Below the pieces are notes generated by a model. It made no database searches. It saw only the letters and a list, made by a program, of their open reading frames with translations, and was not told the origin of the DNA. From a virus (lineage: Duplodnaviria; Heunggongvirae; Uroviricota; Caudoviricetes), in IMG/VR virus record IMGVR_UViG_2541047713_000005: a stretch of DNA of 4,646 nucleotides. One strand, 5' to 3'. Below are positions 1 through 4,646 of the stretch, in pieces (the stretch's first letter is position 1; each line of letters begins with the position of its first letter). Both the position numbers and the translations under genes were made by a program.

Positions 1-1506
1 TCTGCAAGCGCGGCGGCTGCTTCTGCCACTGCATCAGCTAACAGTCAAAAAGCAGCAAAAACCAGTGAAACCAACGCAAAGGTGAGCGAAACAGCGGCTG
101 CGAACTCAGCGAAAGCATCGGCAGCAAGCCAGACGGCAGCTAAAGCAAGCGAAGATGCAGCCAGAGAGTACGCAAGCCAGGCTGCGGAGCCGTATAAATA
201 TGTCTTACAGCCGCTGCCTGATGTGTGGATACCATTTAACGATTCGCTGGATATGATTACGGGCTTTTCGCCGTCATATAAAAAAATTGTTATTGGTGAC
301 GATGAAATAACGATGCCTGGCGACAAGATTGTTAAGTTTAAACGTGCATCGAAAGCAACCTATATTAACAAATCTGGTGTGCTGACAGAGGCTGCCATTG
401 ACGAGCCACGATTTGAACGTGATGGCCTGCTTATTGAGGGGCAAAGAACTAATCTTCTGCTTAATTCAACAAATCCATCTAAATGGAATAAGTCAGGCAA
501 TCTGGAACTCACAGAAATATCCACGGATTCTTTTAATTTTACTTATGGGAGATTTACTGTAAAAGATACTCTTATTGGTCAGACAAGTGCTATTAATATC
601 GTAACGGTTTCTGGCAGTAAAGGGTTTGATGTCACAGGTGATGAAAAATATGTGACCATTTCATGCCGTGTAAGAAGTGATGTTGAAAATGTAAGGTGTC
701 GTTTAAGATTTGAACACCATGATGGTTATACTTACACTTTTTTGGGAGATGCTTACCTCAATTTATCAACACTTGTAATTGATAAAGCTGGTACTGCTGC
801 AGACCGTATTATTGCAAAGGCTGTAAAAGATGAGGTTACTGGTTGGATTTTCTATCAGGCTACAATTAATGCACTAGATACAGAGAGCATGATTGGTGCG
901 ATGGTTCAATACGCTCCTGTAAAAGGTTCAGGCACAGCATCTGGAGACTATCTGGATATCGCAACTCCACAAGTGGAAGGTGGATCAAGTGCTTCGTCAT
1001 TTATTGTAACTGATATAACTGCAAGCACTCGCGCAAGCGATATGGTGACAGTCCCAATCAAGAATAACCTTTATAATCTTCCTTTTACGGTTCTTTGTGA
1101 GGTACATAAGAACTGGTATAAAACGCCAAATGCAGCGCCACGTGTTTTTGATACCGGCGGTCATCAAACCGGAGCGGCTATTATTCTTGGCTTCGGTCGT
1201 TCAACAGATTACGACGGATTTCCTTATTGCGATATTGGAGGAGCTAACAGACGGGTAAACGAAAACGCATCGCTTGAAAAAATGGTTATGGGGATGCGTG
1301 TAAAGTCAGAGCAGTCTACGTGCTCAGTAAGTAACGGGCATATATCCAGCGAAACAAAAACCACATGGTCCTGTATTCAGAACACCGCAATTATCCGTAT
1401 TGGAGGCCAGACTACAGCCGGGTTACGTCATTTATTTGGTCATGTCAGGAATTTCAGAATATGGCACAAGGCATTGACTGATGCTCAGGTGGGGGAGTCA
1501 ATCTAA
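1..1506 (+). CDS. Phage tail fibre protein, 5'-partial (start lies upstream of window); Ala/Ser-rich repeat shaft, distal domain ending in a LamG/concanavalin-A-like signature
   Basis: Frame 1 is open from nt 1 (SASAAAASATASANSQKAAKTSETNAK...) with no stop until TAA at 1504-1506. The 'M' at 82 in the ORF track is an in-frame GTG, not a real start. The N-proximal A/S/T/E/K-rich imperfect repeats are typical of side-tail-fibre shafts. The C-terminus ...LRHLFGHVRNFRIWHKALTDAQV resembles the C-terminal consensus of LamG-like lectin domains (recalled, not searched). GC-rich for the first ~200 nt, AT-rich afterwards. Confidence 0.85.
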   Translation, partial: SASAAAASATASANSQKAAKTSETNAKVSETAAANSAKASAASQTAAKASEDAAREYASQAAEPYKYVLQPLPDVWIPFNDSLDMITGFSPSYKKIVIGDDEITMPGDKIVKFKRASKATYINKSGVLTEAAIDEPRFERDGLLIEGQRTNLLLNSTNPSKWNKSGNLELTEISTDSFNFTYGRFTVKDTLIGQTSAINIVTVSGSKGFDVTGDEKYVTISCRVRSDVENVRCRLRFEHHDGYTYTFLGDAYLNLSTLVIDKAGTAADRIIAKAVKDEVTGWIFYQATINALDTESMIGAMVQYAPVKGSGTASGDYLDIATPQVEGGSSASSFIVTDITASTRASDMVTVPIKNNLYNLPFTVLCEVHKNWYKTPNAAPRVFDTGGHQTGAAIILGFGRSTDYDGFPYCDIGGANRRVNENASLEKMVMGMRVKSEQSTCSVSNGHISSETKTTWSCIQNTAIIRIGGQTTAGLRHLFGHVRNFRIWHKALTDAQVGESI

Positions 1507-2879: not shown

Positions 2880-3173
2880 ATGGATATAACACCTTTCCTT
2901 CATGCGCTTTGTGCTGTGGCTGCGCAGCTACTGATTGGTCTTTTTACCGGGAACTGGGCTTACGGGGCGATAGCCGGTTGTACGTTCTTCATTGCGCGTG
3001 AACACACCCAGGCAGAATATCGCTGGATTGAAATGTTCGGGCATGGCAAGCGAATGAATATGCCGTGGTGGGGCGGTTTTGATCCGCGCGCGTGGGATGT
3101 GGCAAGCCTGATGGATTTTGCTGTGCCGGTGGTGGCGTGTCTGCTGGTCTGGCTGTTGGTTAATCGTGGGTGA
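2880..3173 (+). CDS. Hypothetical small integral membrane protein (~97 aa, 2-3 predicted TM segments)
   Basis: ORF open from TTG 2865; in-frame ATGs at 2874 and 2880. ATG 2880 has an AGGA (2871-2874) 5 nt upstream and is preferred. Hydrophobic stretches FLHALCAVAAQLLIGLF, AYGAIAGCTFFIA and LMDFAVPVVACLLVWLLV. About 55% GC, unlike the AT-rich fibre genes. The antisense ORFs over this region lack such features. Confidence 0.55.
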   Translation: MDITPFLHALCAVAAQLLIGLFTGNWAYGAIAGCTFFIAREHTQAEYRWIEMFGHGKRMNMPWWGGFDPRAWDVASLMDFAVPVVACLLVWLLVNRG

Positions 3174-3183
3174 AAAAAGGTGA

Positions 3184-3312
3184 GCTGTATATGCAACGGA
3201 GGAAGAAACTCCGTTGCTGGAAGCCTGGAAGAAGTATCGGGTGTTGCTGAACCGTGTTGATACATCAACTGCACCTGATATTGAGTGGCCTACGAACCCT
3301 GTCAGGGAGTAA
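3184..3312 (+). pseudogene. tfa: 3' remnant of a tail fibre assembly gene (tfa); no start codon, ~42 codons
   Basis: Frame 1 reads [42 protein letters not shown] directly after a TGA at 3181-3183, with no in-frame ATG/GTG/TTG. It matches the C-terminus of lambda-type Tfa (…[26 protein letters not shown]…, recalled). Relative to copy 2 it carries a 9-nt in-frame deletion. Confidence 0.75.
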
Positions 3313-3326
3313 TCATTGGGATTATG

Positions 3327-3359
3327 CCGCAGCACGTCTTAAGCAAGAACGTGCTGCGG
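3327..3359. terminator. Perfect 11-bp inverted repeat (hairpin) between convergent genes; possible bidirectional terminator or RNA-stability element
   Basis: CCGCAGCACGT (3327-3337), 11-nt loop, ACGTGCTGCGG (3349-3359), which are exact reverse complements. It lies 15 nt after the tfa-remnant stop and 8 nt beyond the methyltransferase stop (TAG, complement of 3367-3369). No U-tract immediately follows on either strand, so it is not a canonical intrinsic terminator. Confidence 0.4.
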
Positions 3360-3366
3360 TTGGATG

Positions 3367-4035
3367 CTATTTTTTCCCTGAAGCGGAAAACATTACTACA
3401 GTACCTTGAACCTTGGTTTTAACATTCTCGAAATGCTCTGAGAGTATATGTGTTAAGCCTTCTTCGGAATCTTTTGTGTTTGAAAAGATGCCTTTCTGAT
3501 TGTAAATGCGCATCAGTTTTTGACCGAAGCTATTGTGCACAACTCCATCGCCAAGAATTGTGGCTCCGTATAGAGTTCCATCGTCAGTTAAGGCCTGCGC
3601 CGCATTGCGTATTACACAGCTTTTTGTAGATATATTTCCAGGCAGGCAGTGAAGAAGGTAAAACATGGAAATGGAATCAAATTGACCATGTAACGCCGCG
3701 GGATAAGGTTCAAAAACATCATGGCTAATTTTATGTTTAATTTTTGATTCCCCAGCCCTTGTAGATGCCGCGTTCAGGCTAGCTTCGTTCAAATCCATTA
3801 AAGATATCAGACTACTCTCAGGTACGTGAGTAAGGTAAAACCCAGTTCCAACACCAATATCCAGATGGTTGTTACCTACATGTTCCAGAAAGTGTGGAAG
3901 AAGGTGTTCCTTTGTAGGACATCCCCATGCAAGCCGATTTGATACTCCCAAAACCCACCAGTCATAAAGCTTTAGGGTAAGTGGTGTGTAAATTTTAGCC
4001 CCATCATCTGTGTTTTTTTTCATTGATTTCACCAT
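3367..4035 (-). CDS. Class I (Rossmann-fold) SAM-dependent methyltransferase, probably not a DNA methyltransferase
   Basis: Motif I LDIGVGTGFY (the hh-D-h-G-x-G-x-G SAM-binding loop), a downstream acidic residue in ISLMDLNE, and a motif II-like FDSISMFYLLHCLP. No D/N/S-PP-Y/F/W motif IV. Stop TAG is the complement of 3367-3369. Two candidate starts: ATG at 4035 (no SD) and ATG at 4023 (GGTGA 5 nt upstream), the latter giving 218 aa and more likely. About 40% GC. Confidence 0.85.
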   Translation of the reverse strand: MVKSMKKNTDDGAKIYTPLTLKLYDWWVLGVSNRLAWGCPTKEHLLPHFLEHVGNNHLDIGVGTGFYLTHVPESSLISLMDLNEASLNAASTRAGESKIKHKISHDVFEPYPAALHGQFDSISMFYLLHCLPGNISTKSCVIRNAAQALTDDGTLYGATILGDGVVHNSFGQKLMRIYNQKGIFSNTKDSEEGLTHILSEHFENVKTKVQGTVVMFSASGKK

Positions 4036-4091
4036 GTTATAGTTTTATTTGTGAATTAAATCAATTATGGCGATGAATTACAAGGGGTTAA
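4036..4091. promoter_or_regulatory. AT-rich divergent intergenic region, putative promoters for the methyltransferase (-) and truncated tfa (+)
   Basis: A 56-bp AT-rich spacer between divergent starts. Minus strand: candidate -10 CATAAT (complement of 4064-4069) with a weak -35 TTTAAC 17 bp upstream. Plus strand: TATAGT at 4038-4043 and TTGTGA at 4049-4054 are possible elements. Read by eye, not scored. Confidence 0.3.
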
Positions 4092-4361
4092 ATGCTGCCG
4101 CAGCATAGCGATATTGAAATAGCCTGGTATGCTTCGATACAGCAGGAGCCGAATGGCTGGAAGACCGTCACCACACAGTTCTACATCCAGGAATTCAGTG
4201 AGTATATTGCGCCACTGCAGGATGCTGTAGATCTGGAAATCGCAACGGAGGAAGAAAGATCGTTGCTGGAGGCATGGAATAAATATCGGGTATTGTTGAA
4301 TCGTGTTGATACATCAACTGTACCTGATATTGAGTGGCCTGCAAATCCTGTCAGGGAGTAA
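4092..4361 (+). CDS. tfa: Tail fibre assembly protein, N-terminally truncated (89 aa; corresponds to the C-terminal half of lambda-type Tfa)
   Basis: SD AAGGGG 4-5 nt before ATG 4092. The C-terminus [53 protein letters not shown] aligns closely with the lambda Tfa C-terminus (…[53 protein letters not shown], from memory). Lambda-type Tfa is ~190 aa, so the N-terminal domain is missing. Confidence 0.8.
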
Positions 4362-4412
4362 TCATTGGGATTATGCCGCAGACACGTCGTATGCAGGAAC
4401 GTGCTGCGGTTA
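4219..4412 (+). repeat. Direct repeat copy 2 (tfa 3' end plus degenerate hairpin)
   Basis: Partner of 3178..3362. The hairpin at 4376..4409 keeps both arms but has one bulged A (4382) and a loop that differs at 3 of 11 positions. Confidence 0.85.
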
Positions 4413-4475
4413 GTTTGTGAGCTTTCGATAGTGGTTGTTATTTTTGCCCTTATTTGTTCCGGAGGCCATGGTTCA

Positions 4476-4646
4476 ATGGTCCGTCTGCCCCCTGTGGTGA
4501 TGTCAGCAAAATCAGCCACTGCGCGAACCACAATAGCCCGGGAAGATGCTGAAGATCACCAGGTAAAGCTGTCAGCGCAGAAACTGGAAGAACTGCTCGC
4601 ATCAATGGTTAAGGATGAGGTTGATCGCAATGATGGGATTTATTGA
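4476..4646 (+). CDS. Hypothetical small protein (56 aa from ATG 4476; the frame is open from TTG 4365)
   Basis: Frame ends at TGA 4644-4646. The 5' part of the maximal ORF overlaps the hairpin and tfa repeat, so an internal start is more plausible: ATG 4476 (GGAGG at 4461-4465, 10-nt spacing) or ATG 4500. The product is charged and probably helical (…AQKLEELLASMVKDEVDRNDGIY). No family recognised. Confidence 0.4.
   Translation: MVRLPPVVMSAKSATARTTIAREDAEDHQVKLSAQKLEELLASMVKDEVDRNDGIY

Follow-up and report, generated by a model that had tools for sequence, protein, structure and literature searches.

Two tfa 3' ends around a ybcY-type methyltransferase gene at the right end of a lambda-like Escherichia coli prophage

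The DNA analysed here (the window) is a stretch of 4,646 nucleotides (nt) from IMG/VR virus record IMGVR_UViG_2541047713_000005 (Caudoviricetes), in which two copies of the 3' end of the gene tfa lie in direct orientation around a methyltransferase gene homologous to ybcY. The window is 98.9% identical to a stretch in several complete Escherichia coli chromosomes. In one such locus (L001; the loci used for comparison are numbered in this way), the genes are arranged in the order tape measure, L, J, lom, stf, a 93-amino-acid (aa) open reading frame (ORF), a 346-aa S74 fibre, a 97-aa membrane protein, tfa pseudogene, methyltransferase, tfa pseudogene, DUF4376 pseudogene, an ompW' 3' fragment, and yciE-yciF-yciG-trp. 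Here a lambda-like prophage has its right end, running from J-lom-stf to attR at ompW. The locus is also the common, long-annotated DLP12-type tfa-ybcY-tfaX region, a case of ordinary and already known phage mosaicism that raises no new biological question. The YbcY methyltransferase is very widespread. The features on which the argument turns are the following.

3193..3312, plus strand: copy 1, a 3' remnant of the resident tfa gene, with its last 39 codons and stop and no start codon (Caudo_TAP profile, homology to phage PhiR26_1, and the Prokaryotic Genome Annotation Pipeline, PGAP)
3326..3360, no strand assigned: hairpin 1, with an 11-bp GC-rich stem (fold of -34.4 kcal/mol; z = -3.9 for either strand)
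3367..4035, minus strand: class I S-adenosylmethionine-dependent methyltransferase gene, ybcY homologue, 222 aa (Methyltransf_12/23/25/11; phrog_2132)
4092..4361, plus strand: ORF89, tfaX-like, 89 aa, made of 31 unrelated codons and the last 58 tfa codons (BLASTP, Caudo_TAP, blastn)
4242..4411, plus strand: copy 2, a tfa 3' end and hairpin 2, in register with 3193-3361 (repeat finder, MAFFT, local alignment, blastn)
About 4375-4410, no strand assigned: hairpin 2 (fold of -29.6 kcal/mol, z = -3.3)

The repeated tfa end

Both copies correspond to the C-terminal end of the Pfam family Caudo_TAP (PF02413), copy 1 covering profile positions 95-130 (E = 6.6e-17) and copy 2 positions 75-130 (E = 1.7e-24) of 131. 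A repeat finder returned a direct repeat of 140 nt (3193-3332 versus 4242-4381, 90% identical) followed, after a 1-nt indel, by a second block of 29 nt (3333-3361 versus 4383-4411, 90%). MAFFT and a local alignment were concordant in giving 160 identical positions out of 180 (88.9%) for 3182-3361 versus 4230-4411, and blastn matched the copies over 170 nt with an E value of 7e-57, far beyond chance. The minus-strand methyltransferase gene (3367-4035) lies between them. A preliminary description of this DNA, made from the sequence by eye, had reported two approximately 90% identical tfa 3' ends with hairpins, in direct orientation around the methyltransferase gene, and these methods agree with it, the similarity being not much shorter or weaker than the hand estimate. 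Its coordinates (3178..3362 and 4219..4412) require trimming, because the first ~15 nt (3178-3192 and 4219-4241) align weakly and only with a 9-nt gap, while solid homology starts at 3193 and 4242. Consequently, copy 1 does not begin exactly at the stop codon of the membrane protein gene, as had been stated; its solid homology begins 20 nt past that stop (3171-3173). The statement that copy 1 lacks a start codon was correct: it consists of 39 codons and a stop only, in a frame closed by a TGA at 3181 and open from 3184 on.

Copy 2 had been credited with a ribosome-binding site and an ATG. A Shine-Dalgarno-like motif, AAGGGG, does precede the ATG at 4092, but the ORF that starts there is no intact tfa gene, as it encodes only 89 aa, of which residues 32-89 alone are Tfa-like. 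In a BLASTP comparison with the 194-aa Tfa, these residues correspond to Tfa residues 137-194 (86% identity); for the first 31 residues, Tfa has no counterpart. At the DNA level, homology to full-length tfa begins at 4196 (4196-4411 versus the tfa gene of L006, 90.7%, blastn). The close homologues of ORF89 in a search of 5.8 billion proteins are all similarly short, and no longer parent protein for the first 31 codons was found among them. PGAP calls both copies at L001 tfa pseudogenes with the N terminus missing. The downstream copy is a remnant in all ~90 loci examined, with an ORF that never exceeds 110 aa. A full-length tfa coding sequence with its own start right after its fibre gene (~194 aa in lambdoid relatives) was found at neither copy, and neither is a functional tfa gene; both tfa calls are pseudogene remnants.

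The truncation of copy 1 is explained by the DNA upstream of it, which ends in the following gene.

2880..3173, plus strand: membrane protein gene, 97 aa, phrog_1443 (ORF list, Pfam, PHROGs; the gene order also occurs in phage 2G7b)

This gene is the last of a fibre module composed of an stf variant, orf93, a 346-aa fibre with a Peptidase_S74 intramolecular chaperone, and the membrane protein gene. A fibre with an S74 intramolecular chaperone should not need Tfa. Phage PhiR26_1, which has a full 194-aa tfa gene followed by ybcY, matches the window at 99.3% over exactly 3193-4316 and has nothing in common with it upstream of 3193 (blastn). Because this homology starts exactly at 3193, the junction 3192|3193 marks the right edge of a fibre-module replacement. 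Copy 1 therefore does not represent a scar of methyltransferase gain, as the preliminary description had proposed: the full 194-aa upstream tfa accompanies the same cassette in PhiR26_1, and the break lies where the fibre module ends. It is instead the residue of the resident tfa gene, left after the fibre module replaced the tfa 5' part and the stf distal part.

Further upstream, window positions 468-1026 inside stf have no megablast or blastn match in L002, L003, or L005, although identity is 95-98% on either side (1-467 and 1027 onward); this segment is another patch of mosaicism in the fibre gene. PGAP annotates stf as two pseudogene pieces in L001, the best-matching genome.

Prevalence and comparison with known prophages

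At nucleotide identities of at least 95%, ybcY is present in 3,829 out of 5,426 complete E. coli genomes, as well as in 14 phage records that are complete. Relatives of the methyltransferase gene were surveyed at 94 loci, comprising 80 viral contigs and 14 loci from a one-genome-per-species collection. Every Escherichia/Shigella locus in this survey that has both flanks present carries a tfa 3' end on each side. The commonest form (~35 loci) consists of a 194-aa tfa, the methyltransferase gene, and an 89-aa ORF, with a repeat of ~226 nt at ~89% identity. The upstream tfa is full length in 54 surveyed loci and is truncated at varied points in several other classes.

In the DLP12 prophage of E. 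coli K-12, the order is tfa fragment, ybcY (frameshifted), tfa fragment, appY, ompT; the tfa fragments are named tfaD and tfaX in the K-12 annotation. DLP12 shares with the window a ybcY gene that is 99% identical at the nucleotide level (99.0% with a 691-nt methyltransferase query), a convergent upstream tfa end with its hairpin, and a divergent downstream remnant with the same 31-codon leader. Unlike in the window, the upstream tfa of DLP12 is fused to a terminase fragment via a large deletion, and copy 2 changes its 3' end after the position equivalent to 4338, the repeat being only ~97-157 nt. The window, for its part, has an intact methyltransferase ORF and a 170-nt repeat with a second hairpin, and the fibre module upstream of them is a different one.

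Two phages show the unit in different settings. PhiR26_1 (PV340555) carries stf, a 194-aa tfa, ybcY on the opposite strand, and a short tfa remnant, so that the unit stands behind a full-length tfa gene. Phage 2G7b (NC_049954) has exactly the layout of the window, with its fibre module, membrane protein gene, tfa remnant, methyltransferase gene, and tfa remnant. In both phages, unlike in the window, copy 2 diverges after the position equivalent to 4316, and the right flank consists of an alpha/beta hydrolase gene and ompT, then int. The window agrees in all features tested with the DLP12-type ybcY unit, that is, a near-identical methyltransferase and tfa layout at a lambdoid right end.

Autonomous extra genes in phage genomes are known as morons, and lambdoid phages also have exchangeable cargo loci beyond the tail fibre genes. 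The unit behaves like either, in that it is an extra gene opposite to the late operon, with what may be its own promoter region and a G+C content lower than that of the tfa copies, absent in collinear relatives, and situated between the tail fibre genes and attR. Its absence in collinear relatives was seen in 20 genomes and two strains, in which tfa (or its remnant) is joined straight to the right flank. As for transcription signals, there is a promoter-like site, the corresponding K-12 spacer binds RpoD holoenzyme in systematic evolution of ligands by exponential enrichment (SELEX), and the hairpin has no adjacent U-run. The unit differs from a moron in this noncanonical terminator and in carrying a tfa' fragment that provides flanking homology, which lies outside the definition of a moron.

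Empty alleles, crossover core, and competing explanations

Alleles that lack the cassette (empty alleles) were searched for with short junction queries built so that filled loci stay under 80% coverage. At the ompW-yciE site, an empty allele of the full-tfa type (stf, full tfa, hairpin, right flank) is present in 20 genomes versus ~360 filled loci (380 minus 20). Empties of this type were also matched full length and in a single piece, with no methyltransferase gene, by a chimeric query of full tfa, one repeat copy, and right flank. The layout of the window itself is empty in four records from two sheep strains versus 53 filled loci; these empties consist of the membrane gene 3' part, a single tfa remnant, the hairpin, the DUF4376 remnant, and ompW', which is the exact product predicted for the window. 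A long chimeric query had suggested that no empty allele exists for this layout (its best 40 of 53 matches were filled, two-piece matches), a result that the shorter junction queries overturned.

Positions fixed between copy 1 and copy 2 across the 53 filled loci with the common right flank served as diagnostic sites. All 11 typed empties are of the copy-1 type at fixed sites up to 3252 (with occasional single-site patches) and of the copy-2 type from 3332, indicating that the switch always occurred within 3253-3331.

3253..3331, plus strand: crossover core of copy 1 (= 4302-4380 in copy 2), with identical runs of 19, 19, and 35 nt, the longest between the copies (typing of 11 empties, identical runs, joints elsewhere)

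In other lineages, copy 2 switches to a different 3' end after 4316 (L002, L005, and L006) or after 4338 (K-12 and L003), and copy 1 of L003 changes after 3291 to a different tfa terminus, which is followed by a katN-yciE-yciF-yciG block. The linked sites 3292/3294/3297 of copy 1 are in the copy-2 state in 11 of the 53 filled loci, which may reflect either inter-copy conversion or allelic variation. Different crossover points had at one stage been assigned to L007, L008, and L009 by comparison with a single filled relative; this assignment was rejected because the three sites are polymorphic across the 53 filled loci.

Two expectations of the preliminary description are borne out by these data: related prophages do carry empty-site alleles at the same chromosomal site (the 20 genomes with full tfa and the two strains with the window layout), and the repeats do behave as sites of cargo gain, loss, or exchange, given the chimeric single-copy empties and the joints of other lineages (4316, 4338, and 3291) within the core. 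Its proposal of cassette gain at a conserved tfa 3' end survives in part: the tfa end is the place where units are gained, lost, and exchanged, with joints in one core, but the truncation of copy 1 is unrelated to gain.

Taken together, we interpret the locus, with a probability of about 0.8, as the right end of a lambda-like prophage that holds 3' ends from two different tfa genes, and in which fibre replacement truncated copy 1 and homologous crossovers in the core exchange downstream cargo. Copy 2 and ybcY travel as one 1,050-bp unit, extending from the minus-strand methyltransferase gene through the divergent promoter spacer and ORF89 (31 unrelated codons and the 58 terminal tfa codons) to the hairpin. 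This unit normally stands directly after a full-length functional tfa gene and its hairpin. In the window, a chaperone-bearing fibre module with no need of Tfa took the place of the distal stf and 5' tfa sequences, so that only 39 codons and the hairpin of the resident tfa are left. The final ~25 tfa codons, together with the hairpin, are conserved in lambdoid phages and therefore serve as a homology anchor, and homologous crossovers in the ~80-nt core (3253-3331), presumably RecA- or Red-type events, would add, remove, or swap downstream sequence. The hairpin presumably ends transcripts. So understood, the locus illustrates clearly, and in many genomes, the shuffling of receptor-binding modules and cargo by lambdoid prophages at the conserved tfa end. 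Whether a prophage has or lacks ybcY here is a recombination polymorphism and does not mark the identity of the prophage.

Several points weigh against this interpretation. (i) Because 3292/3294/3297 are polymorphic in copy 1, independent crossover points among the empties are not provable. (ii) The longest perfect identity between the copies in the window is only 35 nt. In E. coli, efficient RecA recombination needs hardly less than this, and intramolecular deletion should therefore be rare here. (iii) The chimeric empties fit an ancestral empty site, and thus a gain, equally well as deletion from a filled allele. (iv) The hairpin was not called a canonical intrinsic terminator, no U-run abutting the stem. 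(v) For the methyltransferase and its small neighbours, PADLOC returned one meaningless weak match and the NCBIfam matches are far under the cut-off.

An alternative is that the methyltransferase gene, ORF89, and the DUF4376 remnant were left by older prophages that decayed at the same attachment site, in which case the repeat would be two adjacent right ends and there would be no mobile unit. It would account for the three successive tail-assembly remnants ahead of attR, and some carriers (K-12 DLP12 and L105) are clearly decayed prophages. However, the unit also exists inside complete phage genomes, one of them with K-12 MG1655 as its recorded host, and it occurs in at least three chromosomal settings, with ompW, appY/ompT, and hydrolase/ompT as right flanks. 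The unit thus travels with phage, and tandem debris is an unlikely explanation of the present arrangement, though it may describe the unit's first origin.

We regard as distinctly improbable the version given in the preliminary description, in which the cassette was gained in this lineage at an intact tfa, with copy 1 as the scar and copy 2 as the intact gene. The repeats do bracket the cassette, cassette-free alleles do exist, and copy 2 does have its Shine-Dalgarno-like motif and ATG. Against this stand the 3192|3193 break, which matches the edge of the fibre module and not the cassette, and the content of copy 2, which retains only Tfa residues 137-194, is a pseudogene according to PGAP, and has a start codon that the -10 element of the tfaX SELEX promoter would overlie. 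Nor is the layout a recent local scar; it is old and widespread, being found in K-12 DLP12 and in the 3,829 ybcY-bearing genomes counted above. Of the pattern that the preliminary description had set against its own account, namely, full-length independent tfa genes on both sides in related genomes, one half is observed: most loci with the same cassette have a full 194-aa tfa as their upstream copy (PhiR26_1 and the 54 surveyed loci, which already contradict the scar version), but the downstream copy is never full length.

Finally, movement of the unit by a dedicated recombinase acting on the hairpin as an integron attC-like or invertase-like site, like a reading as an invertible segment, was rejected as scarcely credible: although a conserved imperfect hairpin lies at both cassette boundaries and stays with the methyltransferase gene in L003, the repeats are direct and 170-226 nt long instead of short sites, the joints are spread over ~80 nt (3267, 3289, 3291, and 3298-3331), mostly upstream of the hairpin, and no invertase or integrase was found in the annotated locus over the 12 kb to the right or, to the left, among the tail genes.

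Methyltransferase gene, hairpins, and the prophage end

In a PDB sequence search, the methyltransferase is weakly similar to the small-molecule O-methyltransferases UbiG and JHAMT, a generic methyltransferase-fold similarity only, and it may be a lysogen-expressed small-molecule methyltransferase. Literature searches returned only incidental mentions of ybcY and, for tfaX/tfaD, only unrelated acronyms. Relatives of the methyltransferase in Enterobacter (61-64% identical) stand beside housekeeping genes (an M3 oligopeptidase gene; flhE-flhA-flhB) and have no tfa flanks, which shows that the cargo gene has nonphage relatives. The G+C content is 41.4% for the unit and 47-54% for the tfa copies together with the membrane protein gene (47-51% for the tfa copies alone), and low values, of 42-43%, are likewise found in the fibre genes.

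4036..4091, no strand assigned: divergent promoter spacer between the methyltransferase gene and ORF89 (sigma-70-like site on the minus strand; K-12 SELEX promoters)

Genomic SELEX in K-12 lists ybcY and tfaX as a divergent pair whose spacer has RpoD promoters and binds H-NS, the promoters being TTGATT-17-TATAAC for ybcY and ATGGCA-15-TTAAAT for tfaX (PMC3946193). The former occurs verbatim in the window (4021-4064 region, minus strand), where its -10 hexamer (4041-4036) abuts the annotated ATG at 4035. In addition, the PHROG profile begins at methyltransferase residue 5 and a GGTGA motif lies ahead of the second ATG (4023). Translation thus probably begins there, at Met5, which would yield a 218-aa protein. 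The tfaX promoter has ATGGCG in place of ATGGCA in the window (4066-4094, plus strand), and its -10 element would cover the ORF89 start codon; if this promoter is real, the ORF89 ATG would be outside the transcript. It is conceivable, if very doubtful, that an ORF89/tfaX transcript (encoding an 89-aa protein that keeps the Tfa C terminus, or acting as an IS009-like RNA) is expressed together with the methyltransferase gene from the H-NS-controlled divergent promoter and is useful to the lysogen, e.g., by interfering with tail fibre assembly of superinfecting lambdoid phages, and that the core of tfa end and hairpin was then selected as a docking sequence for cargo exchange.

IS009 (RF02111) is a prophage-associated candidate small RNA family in Rfam, this association being the only statement about it in the literature found. 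Its model aligns end to end with 4115-4318 in ORF89/tfaX (112.5 bits) and in part with copy 1 (3171-3269, plus strand; 68.3 bits), in both cases under the gathering threshold of 117. The window thus resembles IS009 in the ORF89 region and differs from it in its subthreshold scores and in the stretch being a tfa pseudogene; judged by these two alignments, what the IS009 family models is largely a tfa pseudogene. Other weak, subthreshold Rfam matches are CssrB over hairpin 1 (3296-3358, plus strand) and isrG inside stf (1-199, minus strand).

The stems of both hairpins comprise 11 bp (CCGCAGCACGT/ACGTGCTGCGG), and the differences between the hairpins are confined to the loop and one bulged A. 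Hairpin 1 lies between the convergent tfa remnant and methyltransferase gene, its 3' end being 7 nt from the methyltransferase stop codon, and it is probably a transcript-end or terminator stem-loop. In L003, this hairpin stays joined to the methyltransferase gene without any tfa end. A 45-aa ORF annotated in RefSeq across the tfa stop, the hairpin, and the methyltransferase 3' end (3285-3422, plus strand), named "hypothetical protein" and, in K-12, "nucleocapsid protein," is almost certainly a spurious call.

To the right of copy 2, the window ends within a third remnant.

4458..4646, plus strand: tail-assembly-like remnant, a DUF4376 pseudogene with an internal stop (PGAP on the 98.9%-identical L001; phrog_7703, phrog_1141)

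This remnant extends past the window to the ompW' fragment at the junction of prophage and chromosome. In more than 35 IMG/VR contigs (within L011-L066), the methyltransferase gene starts 611-612 nt from the contig end, which equals window base 4646, the internal stop of DUF4376. The right edge of the window looks like a prophage-boundary call and not a biological end, with the prophage running ~430 nt further to ompW'. More generally, a repeat of 170-226 nt can mislead short-read assembly as well as prophage boundary calls.

The same prophage end varies in other ways. In two empty alleles (L107, 2228-3057, and L109, 2228-3057), a Rha-family regulator gene and an ash-family gene are inserted between the DUF4376 remnant and ompW', which is another cargo polymorphism at this end. 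E. coli rl0044 (L112) has tfa, hairpin, and DUF4376 remnant, with no methyltransferase gene, beside uspF-ompN, a different chromosomal site, indicating that the empty architecture is itself mobile among prophage sites. In E. coli RM14516 (L003), whose prophage is at the appY/ompT site, genes for Mn-catalase (katN), yciE, yciF, and yciG (7290-10100) lie between the tfa remnant and the methyltransferase hairpin. On the chromosome, the genes of this block border the ompW attachment site, and the block looks like host genes that were acquired at one att site and moved to another as prophage cargo.

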